Below the pieces are notes generated by a model, which saw only the letters and a program-made list of their open reading frames with translations, was not told the origin of the DNA and searched no databases. 24,457 nt of DNA from a virus (Duplodnaviria; Heunggongvirae; Uroviricota; Caudoviricetes), in IMG/VR virus record IMGVR_UViG_2534681674_000009, one strand, 5' to 3'. Made by a program: the position numbers and the translations under genes. How positions within the stretch are numbered: position 1 is the stretch's first letter; each line of letters begins with the position of its first letter. Below, piece after piece: positions 3,662 through 17,297 of the stretch.

Positions 3662-3937
3662 ATGTCGATGTACACAACCGCCCAGCTGCTGGCGGCAAAT
3701 GAGCAGAAATTTAAGTTTGATCCGCTGTTTCTGCGTCTCTTTTTCCGTGAGAGCTATCCCTTCACCACGGAGAAAGTCTATCTCTCACAAATTCCGGGAC
3801 TGGTAAACATGGCGCTGTACGTTTCGCCGATTGTTTCCGGTGAGGTTATCCGTTCCCGTGGCGGCTCCACCTCTGAATTTACGCCGGGATATGTCAAGCC
3901 GAAGCACTTAGCATGGCTTTCTGAGGCTTTCGTGTAG
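3662..3937 (+). pseudogene. E: Major capsid protein gpE, N-terminal fragment (interrupted after codon ~82 by the integrated element)
   Basis: MSMYTTAQLLAANEQKFKFDPLFLRLFFRESYPFTTEKVYLSQIPGLVNMALYVSPIVSGEVIRSRGGSTSEFTPGYVKPKH matches lambda E residues 1-82; after 3906 the frame reads 9 unrelated codons (LAWLSEAFV) and stops. Confidence 0.9.
3897..3906 (+). repeat. Left junction direct repeat (putative attL core) AGCCGAAGCA
   Basis: Identical 10-mer recurs at 16507-16516; phage-derived sequence ends here on the left and resumes there on the right. Confidence 0.65.
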
Positions 3938-4035
3938 TTGCTGGTTTTTACACTTAATCTTTTGATAATAAAGAATAAGTTTATCTGGTGCTTTCACTGA
4001 ATTTTCCTCGTTATCTGTGTGTTGCAATCATCTCT

Positions 4036-4055
4036 GTATTGCAGCTTGTATTGCT
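4036..4055 (+). repeat. Tandem GTATTGCAG / GTATTGC motifs (putative integrase arm-type sites, left arm)
   Basis: TGTATTGCAGCTTGTATTGC upstream of int; the same motif recurs in tandem at 16409-16432 near the right junction. Confidence 0.4.
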
Positions 4056-4231
4056 TTTTGGGGCTAAAAATGGCTGGCGAGAACAAACTGAGCGACAAAG
4101 CGCTTAAAGGATATCTGGGGAAACCCAGAGAAAAGCAGATCACCATTGCTGATGGAAAGGGGCTTTCTATTCGTGTGAGTACTAAAGGGTGAACCGCCCC
4201 GGGTTTCCTGGAGAGTATTTTATCTGTGAAC

Positions 4232-5122
4232 TCAGGCTGCCAGATCATTATTTCCGATGGAAGCATAATAAGCTTTTTCTGCTTCTGCCGGAGGAATATG
4301 GCCCAGCCTTTCCAGCAATCGTCGATTGTTATACCAGTCCACCCACGTTAGTGTGGCCAGTTCCACTTCTGTCCGGTTTTTCCAGCTATTACGGTGTATT
4401 ACCTCCGCTTTGTAAAGACCATTGATGCTCTCAGCCATCGCGTTGTCATACGAGTCGCCAGTACTCCCTGTTGATGCCAGTAATCCGGCTTCCTTAAGCC
4501 GCTGCGTGTAGGCCAGCGATACATACTGAGAACCTTTATCACTGTGATGGATTGTGCCGGACGGCCGACGGGCCCACAACGCCTGCTCCAGTGCATCCAG
4601 CACGAATGTTGTTTCCATGGATGATGAGACCTGCCATCCCACGATGTATCCGGCGAACACATCAATGATGAACGCCACATAAACGAAGCCCTGCCATGTG
4701 CTTACCCAGGTAAAATCAGCCACCCACAACTGGTCTGGACGTTCTGCCACGAACTGACGGTTTACGCGGTCGCATGCGGCAACGGCTTTCCGGCTGACGG
4801 TAGTGCGGACCTTTTTACCCCGGAGAACACCGGCAAGTCCCATAACTGCCATGAGACGTGCCACAGTGCATCTGGCCACTCTGATACCTTCCCGTAACAA
4901 CTGACGCCAGACTTTACGCACACCGTATACCTGGTGATTTTCATCGTATACGCGCTGTATCTCTTTCTTCAGCCAGTCATCGTGCTGCGCACGGGCACTG
5001 CGTTTATCCGGATGATGTCGCTGTTGCTGACAATGGTAATACGTTGACGGGGCAATATGCAGTTCGCTGCATACCGGTCCGACCCCGTACTGCTCACGCA
5101 GCTTATCCAGCAGTGGCATCAT
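4232..5122 (-). CDS. IS629-like transposase OrfB (DDE catalytic domain; normally made as OrfAB by frameshifting)
   Basis: [53 protein letters not shown]...[22 protein letters not shown]... matches recalled IS629/IS1203 OrfB. Confidence 0.9.
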
Positions 5123-5446
5123 TTTTCCAGAGGCGGTCGAACTCCGCCTTCGCAAAATAAGCGGAAGCCTGGCGAAGGATATCGTTACTGCGGCGCAGTT
5201 CACGATTTTCACGTTCCAGCTCTTTCAGACGCTGACGTTCAGCGCTGGTGAGCCCACCATCACCGCCCCCGGTATCCCGCTCATGCTGGCGAACCCAGAC
5301 ACGCAGAGTCTCCGGCGTACAGCCAATCTTTGGGGCAATGGAACTACGATTGCCGCCCACTGTGAGTCATATTCATCCTGACTTTCCAGAACCATACGAA
5401 TCGCCCGCTGACGGACTTCGGGGGAAAAACGAGTATTTTTAGTCAT
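5103..5446 (-). pseudogene. IS629-like OrfA, apparently frameshifted
   Basis: N-terminal [33 protein letters not shown] is in one frame (5225-5446) and the remainder [30 protein letters not shown]...[10 protein letters not shown] in another (5103-5360); junction near 5345-5350. Confidence 0.55.
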
Positions 5447-6620
5447 CCTGTTTACCTCTTTCTCAGGGAGTTTAGTCTCCAGGATTTCCGGGGCGGTTCA
5501 GGGGCTGTGAGCTTTGTTTTCTTCTACAGGTTAGCAGGTGGCCGGGCTGCTCCGGTCTGGCTAACGTTGGGTAAATATCCTGATATGTCACTCAAACAGG
5601 CAAGGGAAAAGCGCGACGAGTGCCGTGGTTGGTTGGCTGACAAACGTGATCCGCGTATCCAGATTAAGATTCAGGCTGAAGAACGCTTAAAGCCGGTTAC
5701 AGTGGAGGATGCACTAAATTACTGGTATGAAAATTACTGTAAGGTGCGTCGTAAAACTCATGCTGTAACGCTTGGCAGATTTCGAAAGCATATCTTTCCC
5801 TATATCGGTCATTTGCCCGTAAATGACACTCACCTATATGAATGGCTGGACTGTTTTGACCGAATTAAACGTAATGCACCAGTTATGGCGGCGTATGTTT
5901 TTTCTGACACTAAATTAGCTCTTCGTTTTTGTCGGGTACGCCAGTACGCGACGTGTGATGCTTTAAAGGATTTGCGCATGAGTGATGTGGGGCAGATTGC
6001 AGGTAAGCGGGATCGGGTTCTGGATGAAGCCGAACTCGGCCAGCTCTGGAAGGCAATTTTTGTCGAGCCTGATTTAAAACTAATGTCTGAATACACGCGA
6101 AAAATGTTTGTGCTTTGTACAGTATTTGGATGTCGAATGAGTGAAGCCCGATTATCAGAATGGAGCGAATGGAATCTCGAAAGTTGGGTTTGGACTGTAC
6201 CAAAAGATCACTCAAAAACTGGTGTTGAAATCGTCAGACCAGTACCTGAAATTCTACGACAGTGGGTAACGGATGTTCACGAAGAGACAAAACATACTGG
6301 TTATGTGCTGGGAAGTCTGCGAATTAGAGAAAGCGTAAGCAAGATTGGGGGGAAAATCGGTAAACGTTTGGGCCATGAAAAACAATGGTCACTACACGAC
6401 CTTAGAAGAACGCTATCTACTCATCTAAGTGATCTCGGTGTTGAATTTTATGTAGTAGAACAACTGTTAGGCCATGCGCTACCTGGCGTGGCAGGTGTTT
6501 ACAACCGGAGTAAGTTTATGGCTAAAAAACTGGATGCTCTGGAACTCTGGACTACATATCTCAATAGCATCGCAGGTGCTGATTCAAAAGTGACAATCCT
6601 CAAACAAAAGGTTGGTTAAC

Positions 6621-6848
6621 ATGAAAAAAATGGCAATTGTTGATAAAAAGGGTCTGGAGTACATTCCTAACATTGACCGAATGATCCGTGAGAAAGAATG
6701 TCGGGAGCTAACCACTCTTGCGAACAGCACACGCTGGAAGCTGGAGAAGGAAGGAAAATTTCCTAAGCGGATCAAGATTGGTTCCACTGCTGTTGCATAT
6801 CGTCTTTCAGAAGTGCAGGCATGGATTCGAGGTGAGTGGGTAGTTTAA
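6621..6848 (+). CDS. alpA: AlpA-like DNA-binding protein (putative excision/regulatory factor)
   Basis: Small basic ORF directly downstream of int with an HTH-like segment ECRELTTLANSTRWKLEKEGKFPKRIKIGSTAVAYRLSEVQAWI, typical of AlpA/Xis-like proteins next to P4-type integrases; ATG 6621 preferred over TTG 6612. Confidence 0.75.
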   Translation: MKKMAIVDKKGLEYIPNIDRMIREKECRELTTLANSTRWKLEKEGKFPKRIKIGSTAVAYRLSEVQAWIRGEWVV

Positions 6849-6874
6849 ATTATCTCAGAATAAAATATTATGAA

Positions 6875-6908
6875 TTACTGATTTGAGAATTTGTACTCAA
6901 ATCAGTAA
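6875..6908. terminator. Bidirectional hairpin between convergent genes
   Basis: Perfect 13-bp inverted repeat TTACTGATTTGAG ... CTCAAATCAGTAA with 8-nt loop, in an AT-rich spacer between the alpA-like (+) and membrane protein (-) genes. Confidence 0.55.
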
Positions 6909-6917
6909 TAACATTCT

Positions 6918-7454
6918 TTATAAGAGATTAAATCCAAATAAAGAGTAATCATATACCGGGGTGCATTGCATCCCACTGAATATGCTGATGTTTTTTTCTG
7001 TTTCTATCCTTTTTTCAATAAGTTGTTGTATATTTTTACAGTACAATTTGTGTGTGATGTTATTATCGTAAGCCTGATATAGCAACGTCAATGTTGATGC
7101 TATGAAACATGCAGAAAGAAAATGAACTAGTACATGTGAGCGTTTTTTGGTTGTCCATGATGCATTCGCTTGTGAAATATAAATCATTCTGAGAATGATA
7201 ATGATGATAGACAGTAACAGACCACTCAATAAAATAAGTATTGGGTTTGCGTATTTAATTAATGGTTGAGAGCAAAAAACTATTATAGCTCCTGTGACTG
7301 CGTATGAGAAAAAGGAGTAATTAAACTTCTTACTCCTTCTCTCAAGTATTTTAATTTCATCTTGTGTGGGGGTTTTAGATGCCTCTAATATAAGTTTATT
7401 AAATGTTTCTGTTATCTTGTTTTTTGTGTTTGTGGCTATTTTTTTTAGATTCAT
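6918..7454 (-). CDS. Hypothetical membrane protein (AT-rich accessory gene)
   Basis: 178-aa ORF with hydrophobic segments (YSFFSYAVTGAIIVFCSQPL, ILILLSGLLLSIIIIILRMIYI, VLVHFLSACFIASTLTLLY); base composition much more AT-rich than neighbours; no recognisable family. Confidence 0.55.
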   Translation of the reverse strand: MNLKKIATNTKNKITETFNKLILEASKTPTQDEIKILERRSKKFNYSFFSYAVTGAIIVFCSQPLIKYANPILILLSGLLLSIIIIILRMIYISQANASWTTKKRSHVLVHFLSACFIASTLTLLYQAYDNNITHKLYCKNIQQLIEKRIETEKNISIFSGMQCTPVYDYSLFGFNLL

Positions 7455-7804
7455 AGCATTCTAACTCCCTTAACTTATTTATTACTTTCTCTTTATGATA
7501 AGAGAGGGGAATGACTTGGTAAAGTGATTTGTCATTAATAATGATAATCCTTGCGATAAATATTTCTGCAAGTTATTTACCTGTTTGTTGCTATCTTGTT
7601 AAGCGTTGGGTGTGGTTTATGTTTGGAGCGACTTTATTTAATCGTGATTTTATGGATTTATATTTATATCCTGTAAGATAAGCGCATGTTAGTTCAGGAG
7701 TAGTGTCAGATAAAATTATTCGGAGTAGAACTACCTTTTCTGTTTATTGCCAGTATTTACATAGCAATGCGCCGTAGTTACTCACATCACGGCGCTGATA
7801 CTAA

Positions 7805-8110
7805 TTATTCAGATTCTTTGGCTTTACGCCGCTGGAGTTCTTCACGAGCGACGGCTACGAGTTGCCCGATTTCCTCCGCTGCCTTGATGCCGATTTGTTC
7901 GACCTTAGCTAAGGCATCCAGTGAAGACACGAGGGGATTTTCTCCGCTTCCTTCTGCCTGGCGGCGGGCGATTTCACCGCGCATGGCGGTTACGATAAAT
8001 CCGGCATTGCTTTCACCGTCCAGCTTAACGGATTCCATCCCTTGCATAACATCTAGTGGGACTCTGACAGTTGTCAGTTGTGATTTTGCGTTTTTGTTAG
8101 CCGTTGCCAT
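7805..8110 (-). CDS. Hypothetical protein, possible regulator (divergent from downstream operon)
   Basis: 101-aa ORF; sits head-to-head with the 8301+ operon across an intergenic region containing repeated operator-like half-sites. Confidence 0.5.
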   Translation of the reverse strand: MATANKNAKSQLTTVRVPLDVMQGMESVKLDGESNAGFIVTAMRGEIARRQAEGSGENPLVSSLDALAKVEQIGIKAAEEIGQLVAVAREELQRRKAKESE

Positions 8111-8300
8111 TTCTGAAACTCCTAATCATCGGTGTGTTTCAGTATACACAAAAAAAGAAATACAAAAAGCCTTGACGTGTGTTTCATGCGCTCATAACAT
8201 GAAACACACCGAAAGGATTGTTGAAATACAAAGAGCAACGCCCCGCAGTGCTGGGAACACATACGGGGCGTCTAACCAACAACGTAAACTAGGAGCCGTT
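8111..8300. promoter_or_regulatory. Divergent promoter/operator region
   Basis: TTGACG (8172-8177) then 17 bp then TAACAT (8195-8200); three copies of GTGTTTCA half-site (8133-8140 and 8179-8186 direct, 8200-8207 inverted), the latter two forming a palindrome over the -10; also inverted repeat GACGCCCCG...CGGGGCGTC at 8239-8273. Confidence 0.45.
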
Positions 8301-8498
8301 ATGGTTGCTGTAAATCATATACCACACCTTGTACACACACAAACGGCCTTTGTGTGGCGTTTTCTGGCACTGAGTGCCGGAGAATCTCAAATCATCCACG
8401 TAACCGCCTGGACGGAACGCGAAGCGCGTAGCCGTTGCCCGTCCGGTTGTGTTGCTGTATTCGCTGCAAAAATCCGCCAGGGAGTGAGTCATGCTTAA
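8301..8498 (+). CDS. Small hypothetical protein (possibly Icd-like)
   Basis: ATG at 8301 preceded by AGGAG (8291-8295); 65 aa MVAVNHIPHLVHTQTAFVWRFLALSAGESQIIHVTAWTEREARSRCPSGCVAVFAAKIRQGVSHA; family assignment is a weak recollection only. Confidence 0.45.
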   Translation: MVAVNHIPHLVHTQTAFVWRFLALSAGESQIIHVTAWTEREARSRCPSGCVAVFAAKIRQGVSHA

Positions 8499-8676
8499 AA
8501 CCTTCCGTGTATTTGCCCGAGCTGTTAACCCAATAGGCCACACAATTGGTATCGCTCAGAATGTGAAGGCTGTTAATGTTCAGACGGCTATTGCTGCGGT
8601 GAGAAGCGAATCATCAGAATATGGCTTATCACAAGTCATTATTTCAGCAGTGTATGAATTAAAAGAGGTGCATTAA
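8491..8676 (+). CDS. Small hypothetical protein
   Basis: 61-aa ORF whose start overlaps the preceding stop (translational coupling). Confidence 0.4.
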   Translation: MLKTFRVFARAVNPIGHTIGIAQNVKAVNVQTAIAAVRSESSEYGLSQVIISAVYELKEVH

Positions 8677-8834
8677 TGCAGGAAATCACATTACACGAAG
8701 CCGCTGAACGTGCGCACCAGACAGAAATTATTGCCGCCTTCTTGAGGTATACCCGAACAAAATTACAGATGCTGATATATCCGCACTGGCGAGCCTACTG
8801 GCGCGTCTTTCGGGAAGTGTCGCTAGTTTTTTGA
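8676..8834 (+). CDS. Small hypothetical protein (52 aa)
   Basis: ATG at 8676 overlapping the previous stop (TAATG), preceded by a strong RBS AGAGGTG (8664-8670); below the ORF-track length cutoff. Confidence 0.4.
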   Translation: MQEITLHEAAERAHQTEIIAAFLRYTRTKLQMLIYPHWRAYWRVFREVSLVF

Positions 8835-8866
8835 TTGAGGAAGAAAGTAAGCTGGTGGGGGATTAA

Positions 8867-9088
8867 ATGAATACAGAACGGGAAGTCTTTTTTAAATTGT
8901 TAGCATGTGCAGAAAGTTCATTAACTTTAAATAATTCAGCAAAAGCAATATTAAATATGTGGCTTGATTGCATAAATGACAATGAAGATGCAAATATTGC
9001 TTATGGCCTGTTGTCACTTATTGATGAAGCAGCAGAAAAACTCAATGACGCAATAAATAGTGCCCTGCTATCAAATAAGTCGAGTTAA
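8867..9088 (+). CDS. Small hypothetical protein (AT-rich)
   Basis: 73-aa ORF with GGGGGA RBS upstream; no recognisable family. Confidence 0.4.
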   Translation: MNTEREVFFKLLACAESSLTLNNSAKAILNMWLDCINDNEDANIAYGLLSLIDEAAEKLNDAINSALLSNKSS

Positions 9089-9105
9089 GTCGAGGAATAA
9101 ATAAT

Positions 9106-9405
9106 ATGGAAATGAAAAATTCTGGCTTTATTGCCAGCGGCCCCGCTCGGCCTGAATTTATGAACGGCGATATTTACCGCGATAAATACGGCGGCACGGT
9201 AACGATTAAAGGCGTGGCAGAACGGCGCATCACTTACCGTCGTGAGGGGTATAGCTATGACTGCGTGATGCCTGTTTATCAGTTCCGGCGTGATTTTTCC
9301 CTGGTATATGCCGCACCCCGCAGTAAGCCCATCAGCAGGGAAAAAGCGCGGGGAAACATCCAGAAAATGAAAAGCATGATTAACGCATTCAGGGGCAAAA
9401 AATGA
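9106..9405 (+). CDS. Hypothetical protein upstream of primase
   Basis: 99-aa ORF with GAGGA RBS; stop overlaps the primase start (ATGA). Confidence 0.5.
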   Translation: MEMKNSGFIASGPARPEFMNGDIYRDKYGGTVTIKGVAERRITYRREGYSYDCVMPVYQFRRDFSLVYAAPRSKPISREKARGNIQKMKSMINAFRGKK

Positions 9406-11153
9406 AACTGGCACCGAACTTAAAAAAACAGCCACGCGACAGACTGACAGAGATAATCATCTTTGCAGGTAGTGATGCGTGGAGCCATGCGAAAGAGTGG
9501 CAGGAATGGGCGGGTAAACATATTGCCGCCGACGATGTGCCGCCTGTCGTGTTGGCTGATGAGCAACTGAAAAACATCACCGATTACCGGATCATTGATG
9601 AAGATCGTCAGTGTGTGCGTGTTTACCGCGCAGGACATATCACAGAGCACAGCATGACGCAGATTGTTACGTTACTGGCTGTGGCTGGAGTGAAGACCGT
9701 ACACGAATACGCGGGGATTACTGACACCAGCCCAGTGGATTTATCCGACCAGTTGCCGCGACTCAAAGAGGAATGCGAGCGTGGGGAAAGCCTGGTGCTT
9801 AATCTTCCGACGAAGCAAAAGGCGCAACTTTCACAGATGGCAGACAGTGAGCGCGCGCAGCTGCTTGCCGAGCGCTTTGATGGCGTTTGTGTGCATCCGG
9901 AAAGTGAAATCGTTCACGTATGGCGCGGCGGGGTATGGTGTCCGATCAGCACAATGGAGCTGAGCCGCGAAATGGTGGCGATCTATTCAGAGCACAGGGC
10001 CACTTTCAGCAAACGCGTGATCAATAACGCCGTTGAAGCGTTAAAAGTTATTGCCGAACCAATGGGCGAGCCGTCCGGCGATTTGCTGCCGTTCGCCAAT
10101 GGTGCGCTTGACCTGAAAACGGGGGAATTTTCCCCGCACACGCCGGAGAACTGGATCACCACGCACAACGGCATTGAGTACACGCCACCAGCACCAGGGG
10201 AGAACATCCGCGATAACGCGCCAAACTTTCATAAATGGCTTGAGCACGCAGCCGGAAAAGACCCGCGCAAGATGATGCGTATATGTGCCGCGCTGTACAT
10301 GATTATGGCGAACCGGTACGACTGGCAGATGTTCATTGAGGCCACCGGAGACGGGGGAAGCGGTAAGAGTACATTTACCCATATTGCCACCCTGCTTGCT
10401 GGCAAACAGAACACCGTAAGCGCAGAGATGACATCACTCGATGATGCAGGAGGGCGTGCGCAGGTTGTCGGGAGTCGTCTTATCGTCCTTGCCGATCAGC
10501 CGAAATATACGGGGGAAGGCACGGGCATCAAGAAAATCACGGGAGGCGATCCCGTTGAAATTAACCCGAAATATGAGAAGCGATTCACGACGATAATAAG
10601 GGCGGTGGTACTGGCAACCAATAACGACCCGATGATCTTTACCGAACGGGCCGGAGGTGTGTCACGCCGTCGGGTGATTTTCCGGTTCGACAACATTGTA
10701 AGGGAGGACGAAAAAGACAAGGAATTACCGGAAAAGATAGCGGCAGAAATCCCCGTAATTATCCGCCGCTTGCTGGCTAATTTTGCTGACCCTGAAAAGG
10801 CACGGGCTTTATTACTGGAACAGCGTGACGGTGATGAAGCTCTGGCAATAAAGCAGCAAACGGATCCGGTTGTTGAGCTTTGCGCGGCGCTGGAGTTTCT
10901 GGAGGAAGCTCGTGGGCTAATGATGGGCGGTGGTGGTGACACCGTGAAGTACACGACCAGAAACAGCCTTTACCGTGTCTATATGGCCTTCATGGCATAT
11001 ACAGGAAAGGGGAAATGTTTGAGCGTGAATGAGTTCGGAAAGGCTATGAGGTCAGCGGCGAAAGTTTACGGATATGAATATATTACGCGAAAAGTTAAGG
11101 GAGTCACGCAGACCAACGCAACGACTACTGATGATTGCGATGCGTTTTTATAA
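9402..11153 (+). CDS. Primase-helicase, D5 / P4-alpha C-terminal-like (SF3 NTPase)
   Basis: 583-aa ORF with Walker A GDGGSGKST and Walker B-like hydrophobic run ending in D (RLIVLADQ); architecture resembles satellite/P4 replication initiators; immediately followed by iterons. Confidence 0.8.
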   Translation: MKLAPNLKKQPRDRLTEIIIFAGSDAWSHAKEWQEWAGKHIAADDVPPVVLADEQLKNITDYRIIDEDRQCVRVYRAGHITEHSMTQIVTLLAVAGVKTVHEYAGITDTSPVDLSDQLPRLKEECERGESLVLNLPTKQKAQLSQMADSERAQLLAERFDGVCVHPESEIVHVWRGGVWCPISTMELSREMVAIYSEHRATFSKRVINNAVEALKVIAEPMGEPSGDLLPFANGALDLKTGEFSPHTPENWITTHNGIEYTPPAPGENIRDNAPNFHKWLEHAAGKDPRKMMRICAALYMIMANRYDWQMFIEATGDGGSGKSTFTHIATLLAGKQNTVSAEMTSLDDAGGRAQVVGSRLIVLADQPKYTGEGTGIKKITGGDPVEINPKYEKRFTTIIRAVVLATNNDPMIFTERAGGVSRRRVIFRFDNIVREDEKDKELPEKIAAEIPVIIRRLLANFADPEKARALLLEQRDGDEALAIKQQTDPVVELCAALEFLEEARGLMMGGGGDTVKYTTRNSLYRVYMAFMAYTGKGKCLSVNEFGKAMRSAAKVYGYEYITRKVKGVTQTNATTTDDCDAFL

Positions 11154-11164
11154 AAAATGGCAAT

Positions 11165-11400
11165 GGTTATCTACCTTGTCTACCTGACTGAAATAAAATA
11201 CTTTTATTTCAATGTATTAATGCAGGTAGATAACTATTTTTCACTGTCTACCTGTTATCTACCTTATCTACCCATTTTTGTAGACAGGTAAGGAGACGGG
11301 TAGAGATGAGGTAGACAGCTATTTGGGGCTGTCTACCTCCCTGAAACCCGCGCCATTACTGGCCTGATAACTAATCAGGTAGACAAGGTAGACAAGGTGG
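11165..11400. repeat. Iteron cluster (putative origin of replication)
   Basis: At least ten copies of (T/G)TCTACC / GGTAGAC in both orientations (e.g. 11168-11185, 11247-11273, 11280-11318, 11331-11337, 11377-11397) around an AT-rich block (11190-11222), directly downstream of the primase gene. Confidence 0.7.
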
Positions 11401-11442
11401 TGGTGCACAAAAAACTTTTTAAACGAGGGGGTAAAAATAAAA

Positions 11443-11685
11443 ATGCACACATCAGGAAAACTGAACAAACATATAAAGCCACATTACCGCGCCCTTGATA
11501 TGGCTGAACACTGGCTAAGGGTGGCGATTAAGGCAATAGACCGCAACGCCGGGGAAGGATACGCGAAAGCACATCCCGAACTGATAAGCGCATTCATGAC
11601 AACGGCGGCTGCAAACTTTGCCACGCTGACCGAACGGGAGATTGCCGAAGCGGAGGAAGTGACAACCATCAATATTAAGTCCTGA
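11443..11685 (+). CDS. Hypothetical protein
   Basis: 80-aa ORF with GAGGGGG RBS upstream. Confidence 0.45.
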   Translation: MHTSGKLNKHIKPHYRALDMAEHWLRVAIKAIDRNAGEGYAKAHPELISAFMTTAAANFATLTEREIAEAEEVTTINIKS

Positions 11686-11696
11686 GAGCAGGCAGC

Positions 11697-12146
11697 ATGA
11701 CGGCGCAAATAGCAGCTTACGGGCGGCTGGTGGACGACCCACAGGTAAAACATACCAGCAAGGGAACACCCATGACACTGGCACGGATGGCGGTATCTTT
11801 GCCATGCAGCCAGGCAGATGACGGAACGGCGACGATGTGGTTATCTGTGCTGGCGTTTGGCAGACAAGCCGACACGCTGGCAAAGCATCACAAAGGCGAA
11901 CTCCTGAGCGTGGCGGGTAATATGCAGGTGAGCCAGTGGACTGGACAGAACGGTGAAACGCGGCAGGGCTGGCAGGTTATCGCAGACAGCGTAATCAGTG
12001 CGCGAACGGTGCGACCGGGCGGCAAAAAAGATCAACAGGGTCAGGCTACTGACGCACTGAACAGAGCAAAACAACAGGCAGATCAGCAAGGAAGCCATCC
12101 ACCAGTGGGAGATAATGAGCAATGGGGAGATGATATTCCGTTTTAA
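11697..12146 (+). CDS. ssb: Single-stranded DNA-binding protein
   Basis: 149 aa with OB-fold-like N-terminal part, Gly/Gln-rich linker and acidic C-terminal tip ending DDIPF, the hallmark SSB tail. Confidence 0.8.
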   Translation: MTAQIAAYGRLVDDPQVKHTSKGTPMTLARMAVSLPCSQADDGTATMWLSVLAFGRQADTLAKHHKGELLSVAGNMQVSQWTGQNGETRQGWQVIADSVISARTVRPGGKKDQQGQATDALNRAKQQADQQGSHPPVGDNEQWGDDIPF

Positions 12147-12163
12147 ATATTGCCAATAAAAAA

Positions 12164-12190
12164 GGCCGGAAAAAAAAATAAATTTTCCGG
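12164..12190. terminator. Hairpin after ssb (possible terminator)
   Basis: CCGGAAAA ... TTTTCCGG stem with A-rich loop; A/T-rich on both sides. Confidence 0.35.
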
Positions 12191-12365
12191 CATGCTACAT
12201 AAATCCAGACCAAAGGGAGTGAAGATATTAACACTAATTATCCGTGCTGAAGTTGTCATCCCAAAACTTTATACAACATTGCACTCGGTTGCATGTATTC
12301 GCATGACAAATATCGGTGATAGCATATATCCACAATTATTTTTAATGAATGCAAAGAGGATGCGT

Positions 12366-13406
12366 ATGGTTGATTTATATTCGCCTACCCAGCTTGTACA
12401 GGTGGTTAATGCTGTAGATGTACAAAAACAACTAAATGCGTTGTTTACCAGTTTGTTTTTTACTCGCTCGGTAATGTTTGAATCGCGCGATATTATTCTT
12501 GATACAATCGACGATCCAAATATCCCAATTGCAGCGTTTTGTTCTCCTATGGTGGGTAGTAAAGTTTCACGTGACGAAGGGTACGAATCAAAAACAATTC
12601 GTCCAGGCTATATGAAGCCGAAAAGCAGCATTGATCCAAATAAGTTAGCTGTGCGCCCTGCTGGTGTATCACCTGAGCAATACAATGCTTTTGGAGCGCG
12701 TAATATTAAAGTTAAACAGGCGATTGTAAATCAGGCTAAAGCTATTCGTGCACGTATTGAATGGCTTGCCGTTCAGGCAATCACAACGGGGAAAAATATC
12801 ATTGAGGGCGATGGTATTGAACGTTATGAGCTGGACTGGAATATTAAACCACAAAATATCATCACTCAGTCTGGCGGTGCTGAGTGGTCAGGTAAGGATA
12901 AAGAAACTTTTGATCCAAATGATGATATTGAGAGCTACGCAGAATTTAGTGAGGGCGTCACTAATATCATCATTATGGGCGGTAATGTATGGAAGAAATA
13001 CCGTTCATTCAGAGCGATAAAAGAGGCTCTGGATACCCGTCGTGGTTCTAATTCCGAACTGGAAACGGCCCTTAAAGACCTTGGTGATTCGGTGAGTTTT
13101 AAAGGGTATATGGGCGATGTTGCGATTGTTGTATACAGCGGGCGTTATACCGACGAGGACGGAACTGAAAAACATTTCCTTGATCCTGATTTGATGGTGC
13201 TTGGCAATACGGCTCTTCAGGGGATTGTCGCCTATGGCGGTATTCAGGATCCGGAGCTAATCCGAATGGGGCTGACTAAAGCCGAACTTGCACCGAAAAA
13301 CTATATTGTGCCTGGTGATCCGGCTATTGAATATGTGCAGACACATTCAGCACCACAGCCAATACCGGCCCGCATCAATCGTTTTGTTACCGTTCGCATT
13401 GGCTAA
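12366..13406 (+). CDS. Major capsid protein, lambda gpE homologue encoded by the element
   Basis: Start at ATG 12366 (RBS AAGAGG 12354-12359). Product aligns along its length with lambda E, e.g. ITQSGGAEWSGKDKETFDPNDDIESYA...RRGSNSELETALKDLGDSVSFKGYMGDVAIVVYSG vs lambda ITQSGGTEWSKRDKSTYDPTDDIEAYA...RRGSNSELETAVKDLGKAVSYKGMYGDVAIVVYSG; clearly a diverged paralogue, not a duplicate. Confidence 0.85.
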   Translation: MVDLYSPTQLVQVVNAVDVQKQLNALFTSLFFTRSVMFESRDIILDTIDDPNIPIAAFCSPMVGSKVSRDEGYESKTIRPGYMKPKSSIDPNKLAVRPAGVSPEQYNAFGARNIKVKQAIVNQAKAIRARIEWLAVQAITTGKNIIEGDGIERYELDWNIKPQNIITQSGGAEWSGKDKETFDPNDDIESYAEFSEGVTNIIIMGGNVWKKYRSFRAIKEALDTRRGSNSELETALKDLGDSVSFKGYMGDVAIVVYSGRYTDEDGTEKHFLDPDLMVLGNTALQGIVAYGGIQDPELIRMGLTKAELAPKNYIVPGDPAIEYVQTHSAPQPIPARINRFVTVRIG

Positions 13407-13415
13407 GGGGGAGCA

Positions 13416-13757
13416 ATGGCTACTCATTACACTGAACTCATGTCTGGCACTGAAGCACTGGTTACTACGCTGGGGATATTTTCAGCCAATAAAGGGGTAA
13501 TACCTGCGTTTACGCCACTGATGCAGGAAGATGCAACTGGTGCGCTAGTGGTATGGGATGGAACGAGCGCAGGCAAAGCGGTTTATGTTTCCGCTGTACA
13601 AATCGACACAGCGAAAAAAACACAGGCACAGGTTTATAAGACAGGTGTTTTAAATGTTGATGCTCTGAACTGGCCTGAGTCTGTAAGAGAACTGTCGGCA
13701 AAGGTTGCCGCGTTTGTTGGCTCAGGTATTTCTGTTCAGCCGCTGGCTCGTGTGTAA
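13416..13757 (+). CDS. Head decoration protein, lambda gpD homologue encoded by the element
   Basis: 113 aa; ...LVVWDGTSAGKAVYVSAVQ...YKTGVLNVDALNWPE...AAFVGSGISV parallels lambda D ...[19 protein letters not shown]...[15 protein letters not shown]...[11 protein letters not shown]; RBS AAGGGGGA. Confidence 0.8.
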   Translation: MATHYTELMSGTEALVTTLGIFSANKGVIPAFTPLMQEDATGALVVWDGTSAGKAVYVSAVQIDTAKKTQAQVYKTGVLNVDALNWPESVRELSAKVAAFVGSGISVQPLARV

Positions 13758-13768
13758 AGGGGGATACA

Positions 13769-14152
13769 ATGCAGAATGATTACAATGACCTTAAGCCAAT
13801 TGCCGAAATGATGTACCCGAATCCAGCTGTAGAGGAATTAAAAGCTATCGCTGACAAAATGTGTTTAAGCGAGCGCCTTGTTGATATGAATCAGGTGATG
13901 GAAATTACAACCCTGAGTCGGCGTACACTGCTAAACCTTGAGGCTAGTGGAGAGTTCCCGGAGCGTGTGCAGGTTACGGAAGGGCGTAAGGCCTGGTATT
14001 TAAGTGAAGTGATCGACTGGATAAATAATATTCCTCGCGCTTCTGAATATTGCCGCGTACCTGTCCCAAAAAAGCCAGATGCGGCGCTATGCCTCAAGAT
14101 TGAGCGTGTACGCCGCAATGCACGGGATGGTCGCTATAAGCTGATTGGTTGA
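13769..14152 (+). CDS. Second AlpA-like HTH protein
   Basis: 127 aa; segment MNQVMEITTLSRRTLLNLEASGEFPERVQVTEGRKAWYLSEVIDWINN resembles AlpA/MerR-type HTH; RBS AAGGGGGA. Confidence 0.6.
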   Translation: MQNDYNDLKPIAEMMYPNPAVEELKAIADKMCLSERLVDMNQVMEITTLSRRTLLNLEASGEFPERVQVTEGRKAWYLSEVIDWINNIPRASEYCRVPVPKKPDAALCLKIERVRRNARDGRYKLIG

Positions 14153-14194
14153 TGAAATTAGGGCCCGCTCTGGCTGGCGGGTCCTTTCCGGCGA

Positions 14195-14340
14195 TCTGAC
14201 AGGCTACGGGGCGTCAGGCGCGCGGGTTTTCTCTATTTATGAGCATTTTAAGGGGACTGGTGGTGGTTTTGTTGTTCGCTATATCTGTATGAATAATAAG
14301 AGAAAAATACAATCAATACACCAACCTGAAACAGTAATTA
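14195..14340 (+). other. cos site (cosN plus cosB-like region) of the element
   Basis: GACAGGCTACGGGGCGTCAGGCGCGCGGGTTTTCTCTATTTATGAGCATTTT closely parallels recalled lambda cos GACAGGTTACGGGGCGGCGACCTCGCGGGTTTTCGCTATTTATGAAAATTTT; lies directly upstream of a Nu1-like gene as in lambda. Confidence 0.65.
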
Positions 14341-14353
14341 AGTTGTGGTATCA

Positions 14354-14896
14354 ATGAAATTACACCTGATGAACAAAAAAAACATGGCAAAAAGTTGCCG
14401 TGTAAGCGCCACTGCGTTCGATAAGTGGGGAGTGATTCCCGTCGAGCGTAAGGGCCGTGAGGCGTTCTATGATGTTGCCAGTGTAATAGATAATCGGGTT
14501 AACAATGCAATCAGCCAGATTACAAACGAAACGGGCGATATTGATGACGATGAACTTTTACGCGTCAGGATCAGATTACTGACAGCACAGGCAGAGGCGC
14601 AGGAGCTTAAAAACGAGCGCGAACGCGGCGACGTTATTGATACAGAGTTTTGTATGTATGTTCTTTCCAAACTGGCGAGTCAGATTTCATCTATCATGGA
14701 CAGCCTGCCGCTTACCATGCAAAGGCGCTTCCCACAGATGACTCCGGCTATGCTGGATGGACTTAAAAAGGAAGTGGCTAAAGCCTGTAATGCCAGTGCC
14801 GGCGTTGCTGACAACCTCCCACAGATACTGGCTGATTATCTGATGGAAAGTACAGGAAACGTACCGGATAAGTTGCAGCTGAATAAGGATAAGTAA
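14354..14896 (+). CDS. Terminase small subunit, lambda Nu1-like
   Basis: ...RLLTAQAEAQELKNERERGDVIDTEFCMYVLSKLASQISSIMDSLPLTMQRRFP matches lambda Nu1 ...RLTRAQADAQELKNARDSAEVVETAFCTFVLSRIAGEIASILDGLPLSVQRRFP; start codon uncertain (ATG 14354, 14369 or 14384). Confidence 0.8.
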   Translation: MKLHLMNKKNMAKSCRVSATAFDKWGVIPVERKGREAFYDVASVIDNRVNNAISQITNETGDIDDDELLRVRIRLLTAQAEAQELKNERERGDVIDTEFCMYVLSKLASQISSIMDSLPLTMQRRFPQMTPAMLDGLKKEVAKACNASAGVADNLPQILADYLMESTGNVPDKLQLNKDK

Positions 14897-14907
14897 CGTA
14901 GTACGCT

Positions 14908-15183
14908 ATGACTGAATCCGAACTACTGAAAGTAATCTGCTATGCTGGTGGAGTCAGCCACCAGCATGACGAACAGGCCACGCAGCCGGGCAGTGTCACC
15001 GCTGAAAATTACGCTCGTGTGGTTGCTGAGGTTATGTGGCGTGACGGTATAGAACTGAACGGACAGGATTGCTTAGTCATCCGCACCAAAGTGCTGGCTA
15101 TACTGGCAGCTAGGCGGAGGCAGGGACAACGCCAGAACGTTGCATCGTACCAGTGGAAGAAGCCTGACAGACTGCGGCGATAA
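14908..15183 (+). CDS. Hypothetical protein downstream of terS
   Basis: 91-aa ORF; no recognisable family; weak RBS. Confidence 0.35.
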   Translation: MTESELLKVICYAGGVSHQHDEQATQPGSVTAENYARVVAEVMWRDGIELNGQDCLVIRTKVLAILAARRRQGQRQNVASYQWKKPDRLRR

Positions 15184-15337
15184 CTCTTTGATTTTCTCGA
15201 CGGCCCCAAAATGGGCCTTACCATAGCCAGCTAATAAATGAGCAAGCCTCAAAAGTGAGGTTTGTGGCCGTTTGGCCTATTCATATGCTAACTCGTTGAT
15301 ATTCCTGACGACGCAAATTTACGCCTTGTGGCTGGTA

Positions 15338-15363
15338 GTCGAATTGCAAATTTGCAACTCGAC
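15338..15363. promoter_or_regulatory. 26-bp near-perfect palindrome (putative operator)
   Basis: GTCGAATTGCAAATTTGCAACTCGAC, self-complementary except one position pair; intergenic between the terS module and the Abi-like gene. Confidence 0.35.
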
Positions 15364-15585
15364 TATGAAACTACAGGTAGTTTGGGTAGTAAAAGCAACA
15401 CACTGATTTTGGGGCTTCTTCGCGATACCTAATATTATGGTATCGGTGGAAGAGATATCGTTTCTCATAGGTTAGCACCGAGGGCGGAGTTCCGCCCTCA
15501 TCGAAAAATTGCTTACGAGTCGTCAAAATAAATTAATCGACTGAGTATAATGATTAACTAATTGCTCGTGTTACTTCATTATACG

Positions 15586-16347
15586 TTATTTCCCATCTTT
15601 AAGGTTTAACCAAGTGTTAATTAAAAAAAGAGCCATTGAGCCTGATAAATTTACTGCAAGTTCGGCATGCCTTGGGGATGGCTTAATTGATGAGCTGTTC
15701 GTTCCATGTGCATCACCGAGTTTATTACGAAGAGTACCTAACCCATTTACAACTGCAGAACAACCGCCGAGAATTTGTTTGAAGATATTTTCAGTATGTT
15801 GGTCGGCAGATAGGTTAAGTTCTTTTGAAAGAGTTTTATAAAGCTCTGACATTTCAATATTTTTATTATTATACTGAATGCCCATATCATCAAGAATGTG
15901 TTTGCAAACTGTTTCAAGAAGTGTTCTTGCGGAGGTTATCGCACCATCCGGATCTGTATGGCGCCGTTCAAGTGCTTTTATCCAAACGGCGTGGACTCCA
16001 TCCTCGTTAAACTTTCTTAATACATCAGATATGTCTTCATCCGCTGGAGCTTTATTTTTCCCTTCTAGATAGTCCAGCATCGGCTGAAATGCCTTATAAA
16101 TCAAATCTCTCCGGGGGGCATACTTTTCAGTCTTTTTTATAAATCCCCAAAATTCTTTTAGTGAGCGATTAGTTCTCACAAACTCTGGTAATAGCTGATG
16201 TAAAGGAGGATTTTGTAAGAAATATGTTCTTAGAAGCAAATAATCATTATTAGCTTCATCCTGGGCTCCTGTAGCTCTTGCAATTAGTATGTTTTGAAGC
16301 GCTACTGCGCGCTCTAGGTCATTTTGAAGGGTATCTATAATATTCAT
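15586..16347 (-). CDS. Abi-like protein with HEPN-type Rx4-6H motif (putative abortive-infection / defence effector)
   Basis: 253-aa ORF on the opposite strand at the element's right end; C-terminal LGTLRNKLGDAHG contains R-x6-H as in HEPN/Abi_C family proteins. Confidence 0.55.
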   Translation of the reverse strand: MNIIDTLQNDLERAVALQNILIARATGAQDEANNDYLLLRTYFLQNPPLHQLLPEFVRTNRSLKEFWGFIKKTEKYAPRRDLIYKAFQPMLDYLEGKNKAPADEDISDVLRKFNEDGVHAVWIKALERRHTDPDGAITSARTLLETVCKHILDDMGIQYNNKNIEMSELYKTLSKELNLSADQHTENIFKQILGGCSAVVNGLGTLRNKLGDAHGTNSSSIKPSPRHAELAVNLSGSMALFLINTWLNLKDGK

Positions 16348-16408
16348 AACAAATCTTTATTCACTTCATTTGTGGGTTGATAATTGAATGGTTTGTACAT
16401 TGATTTCT

Positions 16409-16432
16409 GTGTATTGCAGTGTGTATTGCAGC
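16409..16432 (+). repeat. Tandem GTGTATTGCAG repeats (putative integrase arm-type sites, right arm)
   Basis: GTGTATTGCAGTGTGTATTGCAGC, same motif as at 4036-4055. Confidence 0.4.
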
Positions 16433-16506
16433 ATAGCCATTCAGGTAAAGATTATGCTCTATTTTTCCTCTTATATCATTCACATACTTACACCATTGAC
16501 TCATGT

Positions 16507-16516
16507 AGCCGAAGCA
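16507..16516 (+). repeat. Right junction direct repeat (putative attR core) AGCCGAAGCA
   Basis: Identical to 3897-3906; downstream sequence TGAGGTGAATCCGCAGATGACC continues lambda E. Confidence 0.65.
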
Positions 16517-17297
16517 TGAGGTGAATCCGCAGATGACCCTGCGTCGCCTGCCGGATGAAGATCCGCAGAATCTGGCGGACCCGGCTTACCGCCGCCGTCG
16601 CATCATCATGCAGAACATGCGTGACGAAGAGCTGGCCATTGCCCAGGTCGAAGAGATGCAGGCAGTTTCTGCCGTGCTTAAGGGCAAATACACCATGACC
16701 GGTGAAGCCTTTGATCCGGTTGAGGTGGATATGGGCCGCAGTGCGGCAAACAACATCACACAGTCCGGTGGCACGGAGTGGAGCAAGCGTGACAAGTCCA
16801 CGTATGACCCGACCGACGATATCGAAGCCTACGCGCTGAACGCCAGCGGCGTGGTGAATATCATCGTGTTTGATCCGAAAGGATGGGCGCTGTTCCGTTC
16901 CTTCAAAGCCGTCAGGGATAAGCTGGATACCCGTCGCGGCTCTCATTCCGAGCTGGAGACAGCGGTAAAAGACCTGGGCAAAGCGGTGTCTTATAAGGGA
17001 ATGTATGGCGATGTGGCCATCGTCGTGTATTCCGGACAGTACGTGGAAAACGGCGTCAAAAAGAACTTCCTGCCGGACAACACGATGGTGCTGGGGAACA
17101 CTCAGGCACGCGGTCTGCGTACCTATGGCTGTATTCAGGATGCGGACGCACAGCGCGAAGGCATTAACGCCTCTGCCCGTTACCCGAAAAACTGGGTGAC
17201 TACCGGCGATCCGGCGCGAGAGTTCACCATGATTCAGTCAGCACCGCTGATGCTGCTGGCTGACCCTGATGAGTTCGTGTCCGTACAACTGGCGTAA
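16507..17297 (+). pseudogene. E: Major capsid protein gpE, C-terminal fragment (codons ~80-341)
   Basis: (PKH)EVNPQMTLRRLPDEDPQNLADPAYRRRRIIMQNMRDEELAIAQVEEMQAV...EFTMIQSAPLMLLADPDEFVSVQLA, near-identical to lambda E from residue ~83; no in-frame ATG, upstream in-frame TAG at 16506-16508. Confidence 0.9.

Follow-up and report, generated by a model that had tools for sequence, protein, structure and literature searches.

A stretch of a satellite capsid gene that resembles the satellite's own integration core likely owes the resemblance to shared ancestry with lambda E

The window analysed here, a stretch of 24,457 nucleotides from a Caudoviricetes record of IMG/VR (IMGVR_UViG_2534681674_000009), contains a lambda-E gene that is split by a 12.6-kb island. 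The exact 10-mer AGCCGAAGCA occurs in the window in two copies only, at 3897-3906 and 16507-16516, and these bound the island. The frame that ends at the first copy starts like lambda E (MSMYTTAQLL...PGYVKPKH) and reads through into the island as far as a stop codon at 3935-3937, while the rest of E follows the second copy. When 3662-3906 and 16517-17297 were joined, the DNA encoded a 341-aa protein and was 99.5-100% identical to the E genes of phages lambda, 434, HK629/630 and the Stx1a phages. The break falls at K-P-K, residues 79-81 of the protein, and the neighbouring helper genes (portal, protease, D, FI, FII, Z, U, V, G, T, H, M and L) are lambda-like. The features of the helper gene and of the two attachment sites are as follows:

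3662..3906, + strand: N-terminal fragment (codons 1-82) of lambda-E, the major capsid gene of the helper prophage
3897..3906, + strand: identity block AGCCGAAGCA of attL, located by exact repeat search
3897-3903, + strand: putative 7-bp overlap in attL, AGCCGAA, on codons (A)AG CCG AA(G), deduced from the att variant census and the symmetry of attR
16500..16520, + strand: attR core CTCATGT / AGCCGAA / GCATGAG, with the 10-bp block at 16507-16516
16517..17297, + strand: C-terminal part of helper E, codons 83-341

The island carries its own E-family capsid gene, whose start codon at 12366 was taken from the PGAP annotation of two related islands (L001 and L002) that occupy the same site with other cargo. 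Its features were assigned as follows:

3907..16506, + strand: body of the HE-PICI (helper-embedded PICI), ~12.6 kb including a 1.3-kb insertion sequence, with its key genes co-oriented with E
4033..4055, + strand: doubled TGTATTGC motif of the P' arm, its near edge ~131.5 bp downstream of the att centre
4070..4189, + strand: first 40 codons of the integrase gene, arm DNA-binding domain, colinear with the intact 411-aa integrase of L001
4190..5500, - strand: IS3-family insertion sequence of ~1.31 kb that interrupts the integrase gene (NCBIfam transpos_IS3, E=1.9e-93)
5501..6619, + strand: other 371 codons of the integrase gene, tyrosine recombinase catalytic domain (Pfam Phage_integrase, Arm-DNA-bind_3 and Phage_int_SAM_3)
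6612..6848, + strand: AlpA-family excisionase/regulator (Pfam Phage_AlpA, E=3e-15)
9402..11153, + strand: primase/helicase of the replication zone (D5_N, DUF5906)
12366..13406, + strand: island E-family major capsid gene, 346 aa, of the 'KPKSS' clade (Pfam Phage_cap_E, E=2.7e-41)
12614..12630, + strand: the stretch under study, GAAGCCGAAAAGCAGCA, inside the island capsid gene
13416..13757, + strand: island-borne homologue of the lambda D head-decoration protein (Pfam HDPD, E=4.6e-15)
16408..16430, + strand: doubled TGTATTGC motif of the P arm, its near edge ~81.5 bp upstream of the att centre

Further island genes were recognised by Pfam as SSB, a second AlpA-like gene, a Nu1-like gene and Abi_C, and the Pfam matches in the sequence give the zone order int-alpA, variable region, primase-SSB and late capsid genes. 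A search of the island for a lambda-type cosN (GGGCGGCGACCT) returned nothing meaningful. The integrase is a P4-type tyrosine integrase, split after codon 40 by the IS3-family element, which has 41-nt imperfect terminal inverted repeats and a GGG target duplication; the two parts of the gene align colinearly with the unbroken 411-aa integrases in L001 and L002. Because the insertion sequence disrupts this gene, the island of the window is probably unable to excise unaided, and this copy is probably locked in place. Integrases 88-100% identical to this capE type all adjoin E fragments.

Elements of this kind were described as HE-PICIs by Tommasini, Mageeney and Williams (2023, NAR Genom Bioinform; PMC10111431). 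Their prototype, Eco567.11capE, interrupts a homologue of lambda E and has an identity block of 10 bp; qPCR and deep sequencing confirmed that it excises precisely, and 201 instances were reported at the site, E:Phage_cap_E:80 (PMC10111431). The same paper places a doubled motif tgTGTATTGCantgTGTATTGCa on both sides of the attP centre, 81 ± 2 bp away on the upstream side and 132 ± 2 bp on the downstream side, and reports that HE-PICIs also integrate off-target and into PICIs at C:CLP_protease:110 (PMC10111431). Its Figure 1A shows the att-site segment of lambda E beside the corresponding one from the satellite's capsid gene; the differences between them are called 'extensive' and self-integration is considered to be probably prevented (PMC10111431). 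The TGTATTGC motifs of the window match the tgTGTATTGCantgTGTATTGCa type and lie at the published distances (~81.5 and ~131.5 bp); moreover, the window has the co-oriented split E, the 10-bp block, the spacing of the doubled motif and the zone order that characterise E:Phage_cap_E:80. Its element is a published HE-PICI of this site, and the comparison with its own capsid gene is already in print. In the later literature that we searched, we found no paper that extends the point about self-targeting.

The insertion is recurrent. The junction between E and the island was present in 173 of 5426 complete E. coli genomes, and the island arm in 175 of the 5426, 173 of these 175 having it joined to helper-type E. 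The same junction was found in dozens of IMG/VR prophages and, with more divergent islands, in the E homologues of Kosakonia (L006) and Cedecea (L005). A one-genome-per-species scan with the island capsid protein gave four loci, which were informative for divergent att sites but not numerous enough for statistics, and IMG/VR was used for the counts; the survey sample came to ~300 related loci.

The stretch at 12614-12630 lies in frame in the island capsid gene and reads ATG AAG CCG AAA AGC AGC, that is, M K P K S S. In a global protein alignment the rejoined helper E (341 aa) and the island capsid protein (346 aa) are 41% identical, and their PGY[V/M]KPK segments align without a gap; the island protein matches PDB 3BQW with E=2.6e-121 and lambda gpE (7VI9) with E=2.3e-76. 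The original prediction held that the integrase targets a conserved capsid motif and that the island's own capsid gene carries a copy of the core at the homologous codons. The first point is supported, as already published for this site: the motif PGYVKPKHE was invariant in 80 of 80 uninterrupted helper E genes, and the junction of E with the island recurs in the 173 E. coli genomes. The second is right, for the own-gene stretch occupies the aligned codons in frame. The accompanying statement that the copy differs from the core by one base does not hold, since AGCCG-AAAA-GCA (12 nt) and the core AGCCG-AA-GCA (10 nt) are separated by an edit distance of 2. Removal of one A from the own-gene site gives AGCCGAAAGCA, which still differs from the core. 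In codon register, seven of the ten positions match (AGCCGAA) and the next three are all mismatched; the flanks are identical to those of attB at 13/30 positions on the left and 10/30 on the right.

As a bare string, the match to the core is at chance level. A Sellers scan at edit distance 2 counted 66 loci in the window, against 70.6 ± 7.6 expected from Markov-shuffled sequence. Exact runs of 8 nt or more number 11 between the helper E and the island capsid genes, the in-register AAGCCGAA (8 nt) at the site among them, and the local identity of 12/17 was reached or passed by 15% of 17-nt windows. BLASTN between the two capsid genes returned a single 135-nt stretch elsewhere, at 75%, and no DNA-level similarity around the motif. 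The AAGCCGAA part of the match exists because the K-P-K codons are conserved by homology, and the GCA that follows the extra As is a coincidence.

We next consider where recombination would take place. Among the 80 uninterrupted helper E genes the core alleles were AGCCGAAGCA in 52, AACCCAAGCA in 26 and AGCCCAAGCA in two, and they differ at the third codon positions of Lys and Pro. In a census of ~100 attL and ~100 attR sequences these same positions, 2 and 5 of the block, varied in both attL and attR with the alleles of uninterrupted E. Position 8 varied between G and A in attR only, along with the helper-side flank, and was G in 20/20 attL variants, along with the island-side flank; positions 8-10 of attL read GCA in 19/20 variants and GTA in that of Cedecea. 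The base preceding position 1 was always helper-type in attL and island-type in attR, and in Cedecea (L005) the identity block is exactly 7 bp, AACCAAA. Moreover, CTCATGT in attR agrees at 6/7 positions with CTCATGC, the reverse complement of the right half-site, in a symmetry centred on the 7-mer. From these patterns we infer the position of the crossover and the identity of the half-sites: strand exchange probably occurs in a 7-bp overlap, A-R-C-C-N-A-A, on the K-P-K codons, which would be flanked by half-sites of consensus CTCATGY, the one on the helper side (RCAYGAR) coinciding with the His-Glu codons. An objection to such an overlap is that the attL and attR of a pair disagree at positions 2 and 5, inside the 7-mer, in 10 of 38 cases, and a true overlap should recombine less readily when mismatched; the integrase may tolerate overlap mismatches, or these pairs may stem from later homologous recombination of composite prophages with each other. 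The core alleles showed no linkage to a nearby GAG/GAA polymorphism of the helper (27:25 and 13:12), which makes that polymorphism uninformative for the crossover. A derivation of attP from a capsid gene fragment was considered and rejected, as the flanks of attP and attB are identical at only 10/30 and 5/30 positions.

Divided into these putative parts, the own-gene site reads TATATGA / AGCCGAA / AAGCAGC. Positions 12616-12622 (AGCCGAA) are identical to the proposed overlap, and positions 12623-12629 (AAGCAGC, the third position of Lys plus the Ser-Ser codons) stand where attB has the half-site GCATGAG. When 12609-12629 was compared with natural attB variants, the overlap agreed at 7/7 positions and the right half-site at 2/7 with RCAYGAR. 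With AAGCAGC in place of its right half-site, the own-capsid site is unlikely to be recognised or to function as an attB, and no interrupted copy of it turned up in 87 loci or in 175 genomes. Under this division the own gene would keep the crossover segment perfectly, the difference being a wholesale change beside it rather than a minimal one.

We then looked at how this state is distributed among satellites. The motif PGYMKPKSS is shared by all 87 relatives of the island capsid gene, and its codons drift synonymously (AAG/AAA, CCG/CCA/CCC, AAA/AAG and AGC/AGT). The 7-nt match is broken in the own genes of 5/56 sampled E-embedded islands: four, including L002, L073 and L075, read AAACCGAAAA, and L006 reads AAACCCAAAA. 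Among 52 unique islands, 19 have the same 7-mer in their own capsid gene as in their att allele. An identical AAGCCGAAAAGCAGC was found in satellites that have a 54%-identical integrase and reside in the portal gene B, with the helper E intact alongside, and also in satellites with roxA-type and tRNA-Pro-type integrases. The satellites with the 54%-identical integrase had been considered as fis PICIs, an assignment that we rejected because no fis gene is adjacent; they are HE-PICIs of portal gene B. Since AAGCCGAAAAGCAGC is common to satellites with other integrases, the Ser-Ser state is a trait of the capsid clade and probably not an adaptation of the E-targeting lineage.

These distributions bear on the remaining part of the original prediction, that the island's gene differs 'just enough' not to be a perfect target. 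The edit distance of 2, the fully kept 7-bp overlap and the change of the whole right half-site do not fit a difference that is just sufficient, and the occurrence of the identical AAGCCGAAAAGCAGC with other integrases, together with the overlap match in 19 of 52 islands, argues against tuned avoidance. As worded, this part of the prediction is not supported.

A sister clade of satellite capsid proteins, 351 aa long and of the PDB 3BQW type, reads PGYMKPKHE and includes L168 and L169. In 80 IMG/VR loci of this KPKHE clade the DNA was AGCCAAAGCA in 47, AGCCAAAACA in 18 and another natural-looking allele in nine; six of the 80 (L257, L258, L262, L264, L270 and L291) have a perfect AGCCGAAGCA followed by CGAA, and these perfect-core sites keep an intact RCAYGAR half-site. 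No invaded capsid gene was found among the 87 KPKSS-type and 80 KPKHE-type genes sampled, all of which are intact, and the junction of a KPKHE capsid gene with the island arm occurred in 0 of 5426 E. coli genomes. One genome contains both an E-embedded island (L040/L194) and an intact 351-aa capsid gene (L250). Evidently, observed integration takes more than the presence of the perfect 10-bp core in a capsid gene of a satellite; either attB recognition requires more than the features identified here, or insertions into KPKHE genes get lost.

E-targeting islands picked by their integrase alone carried the Ser-Ser clade in 60 of 60 cases. The unique integrase/capsid pairs, from samples that were drawn by similarity to capsid or integrase and lack phylogenetic independence, were distributed as follows (Ser-Ser : His-Glu):

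capE integrase, 48:0
portal-B integrase, 9:1
roxA integrase, 3:26
tRNA-Pro integrase, 3:16
other integrases, 2:1

A Fisher test on this pairing gives p ~1e-16, which we rejected as a sign of selection because the sampling is seeded and covers related islands, and because the nearest relatives have the same skew. Integrase and capsid co-diverge across genera (88-93% and 84-87% identity, respectively), and L177 and L195 combine a 100%-identical integrase with an 84-85%-identical capsid gene.

The reading best supported by these results is that 12614-12630 is an ordinary stretch of capsid gene in a satellite of known kind, and that its resemblance to the core reflects shared ancestry and not a tuned escape; we consider this likely. 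The own gene resembles the core because the satellite capsid protein and helper E are distant homologues that keep P-G-Y-x-K-P-K. Mechanistically, strand exchange by the integrase would fall in the K-P-K codons, within the 7 bp A-R-C-C-N-A-A, and Ser-Ser in place of His-Glu would swap the symmetric half-site GCATGAG (RCAYGAR) for AAGCAGC in the own gene. As the Ser-Ser clade travels with several unrelated integrases, this would involve no fine-tuned one-base escape.

A different account of the resemblance is pure coincidence, a near-match unrelated to homology and amounting to one random near-copy of a 10-mer. The 66 loci within edit distance 2 against ~70 expected are what it predicts, and the BLASTN result, with similarity only in the 135 nt elsewhere at 75% and none around the motif, also agrees with it. 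Yet the match sits exactly on the aligned K-P-K codons of two homologues, so that the ungapped alignment largely refutes this account; moreover, the matching part is the in-register 8-nt AAGCCGAA, which leaves only the return of GCA after two As as coincidental, and we regard the idea as very improbable. Still less probable, to the point of being nearly negligible, is that the own-capsid site works as a secondary att site, at which a sibling could integrate (a PICI within a PICI) or an intramolecular rearrangement take place. The whole presumed 7-bp overlap is present in the own gene, and HE-PICIs are known to go off-target, including into PICIs at C:CLP_protease:110 (PMC10111431). On the other side, the right half-site is missing from the own gene, the 87 KPKSS-type and 80 KPKHE-type capsid genes sampled are all intact, in 173 of the 175 E. 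coli genomes with the island arm that arm adjoins helper-type E, and the junction of KPKHE with the arm is absent from all 5426 genomes.

The alternative that comes closest is an adaptive one, in which avoidance of a self-target keeps E-targeting satellites to the Ser-Ser capsid clade, by restriction or by selection, on the logic that recombination of attP with an own K-P-K-H-E site would delete or invert part of the island. It is consistent with the 48:0 pairing of the capE integrase with KPKSS, while the portal-B, roxA and tRNA-Pro types occur with both clades; with the 60 of 60 KPKSS islands in the sample chosen by integrase, given that L177 and L195 show that module exchange happens; and with the perfect AGCCGAAGCA-CGAA core and intact half-site in six of 80 KPKHE loci. 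However, the nearest kin, which target the portal gene, are themselves 9:1 for KPKSS, and the capE set is statistically indistinguishable from them, so that lineage suffices. The sampling by similarity to capsid or integrase also leaves the pairs without phylogenetic independence, the two genes diverge together from genus to genus (88-93% for the integrase and 84-87% for the capsid), identity in the 7-bp overlap goes unavoided in 19 of 52 islands, and KPKSS is also carried by satellites that would gain nothing by avoiding the site. The 48:0 pairing is explained equally well by common descent of the HE-PICI backbone. We therefore think selection of this kind unlikely, and we are similarly doubtful of the corresponding claim that the capE integrase is compatible only with the Ser-Ser clade, in which the strong half-site is erased, and that the KPKHE clade is a latent target, incompatible in cis.

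The system itself matters as a striking example of cis-regulation between parasite and virus, in which a satellite keeps the capsid gene of its helper disrupted up to its own excision, but it has already been described. What is refined here is the picture of the att site, with a probable 7-bp crossover on the K-P-K codons and a putative symmetric half-site on the His-Glu codons. The capE integrases are never found with the capsid clade that carries the complete target; if selection were behind this, integration specificity would constrain the element's own gene content, and the KPKHE clade would permit insertion of a satellite within a satellite.

Among known systems, the element of the window is closest to Eco567.11capE at E:Phage_cap_E:80, with which it shares the lambda-E codon, the co-orientation, the 10-bp AGCCGAAGCA, the spacing of TGTATTGC and the gene order of int-alpA, variable zone, primase-SSB, capsid and decoration genes. 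It differs in the IS3-family element in its integrase gene, in its cargo, which here includes an Abi_C gene, and in its Nu1-like gene, whereas 11capE has no terS according to the paper (PMC10111431). The Gram-negative PICIs, such as the chromosomal, trans-acting EcCICFT073, are alike in size, in the int-alpA-primase arrangement, in their E-like and D-like genes and in their lambdoid helper; unlike the present island they occupy chromosomal sites, for example beside roxA or tRNA-Pro (L167-L169), and many have the 351-aa KPKHE capsid clade (PDB 3BQW) and not KPKSS.

The att sites of lambda-family tyrosine integrases offer a further parallel in the 7-bp overlap (deduced here from allele patterns), the inverted half-sites CTCATGY, the arm-type repeats on both arms and the AlpA/Xis-like directionality factor. 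Here, however, attB is internal to a structural gene of the phage, and as attP brings no replacement sequence the target gene is broken until excision. Ccm of SaPIbov5 is likewise a diverged homologue of the helper's major capsid protein borne by a satellite; it differs in being an HK97-type protein of a Gram-positive cos satellite, with a demonstrated role in the remodelling of capsid size.

Besides the KPKSS clade, to which the capsid gene of the window's island belongs, satellites carry a second clade of E-like capsid genes (351 aa, of the PDB 3BQW type), and these encode the motif KPKHE. The perfect 10-bp core AGCCGAAGCA together with an attB-like right flank was found in six IMG/VR loci of this second clade (L257, L258, L262, L264, L270 and L291). 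Every copy of the KPKHE-clade capsid gene was intact, and none of the copies found was linked to an E-targeting integrase. Two of these genes are located as follows:

Related locus L168, 10809-11864: KPKHE-clade capsid gene
Related locus L169, 9478-10533: KPKHE-clade capsid gene

As for the KPKSS gene of the window, a mechanical ORF of 418 aa with a TTG start at 12150 over-extends it across 12150-12365. The start supported by the annotated relatives and by aligning the protein with lambda E is the ATG at 12366, giving a 346-aa product.

Next to these capsid copies stands the variability of the att core itself. Across the window (3897-3903 and 16507-16513) and loci L007-L234 it reads AGCCG, AACCC, AGCCC, AGCCA, AGCCT or AACCA, the variants differing precisely at the third positions of the helper Lys and Pro codons; therefore, the non-coding attP seems to import synonymous variants of the helper. 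For the two main alleles, every attL/attR combination was found (14, 11, 6 and 4).

In the window, the integrase gene of the island is broken after codon 40 by an insertion sequence whose 41-nt terminal inverted repeats are imperfect and which produced a GGG target duplication:

Window, 4070-6619: integrase gene
Window, 4190-5500: IS3-family element (~1.31 kb), inside the integrase gene

Unless another integrase acts in trans, the satellite is probably locked in place and the helper capsid gene kept broken.

Another locus, L064, combines two insertion sites:

L064, 1916-2752: fragment of the portal gene B
L064, 2946-4181: integrase
L064, 14158-14949: C-terminal fragment of E

On the left it has a junction in B together with the B-type integrase; on the right it ends in an E-type attR, after which FI follows. 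This hybrid element looks to have arisen through recombination or deletion involving two helper-embedded satellites of one prophage, an event in which the C-terminus of B, C, D and the N-terminus of E appear to have been lost.

Islands sharing one insertion site carry unlike cargo, as the window's island and L002, an island at the same E site, illustrate:

Window, 15586-16347, minus strand: Abi_C abortive-infection gene
L002, 5385-6260: differing cargo

Abi_C is common to both islands, whereas the position after alpA is taken in L002 by a TIR-domain gene and in the window by an oppositely oriented membrane-like ORF of 178 aa. This difference suggests that the defence cargo is swappable.

Directly downstream of the primase gene (11162-11395) lies a dense cluster of direct and inverted repeats with GGTAGACA/TCTACCT-like units (families D3, I2, I8 and I21), probably the satellite's iteron-type replication origin. 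A 30-nt near-perfect palindrome, TAGTCGAATTGCAAATTTGCAACTCGACTA, occupies 15336-15365 in the intergenic stretch that separates the late genes from the Abi_C gene; it could be an operator or a piece of a cos-region element.

Finally, an island-encoded protein at 14345-14896 gave a clear match to Phage_Nu1 (E=1.1e-24), and its relatives are annotated by PGAP as terminase small subunit. It may act as a packaging-redirection factor. The published prototype HE-PICI, Eco567.11capE, was described as being without terS (PMC10111431), in contrast to the window's island with its Phage_Nu1-like protein.
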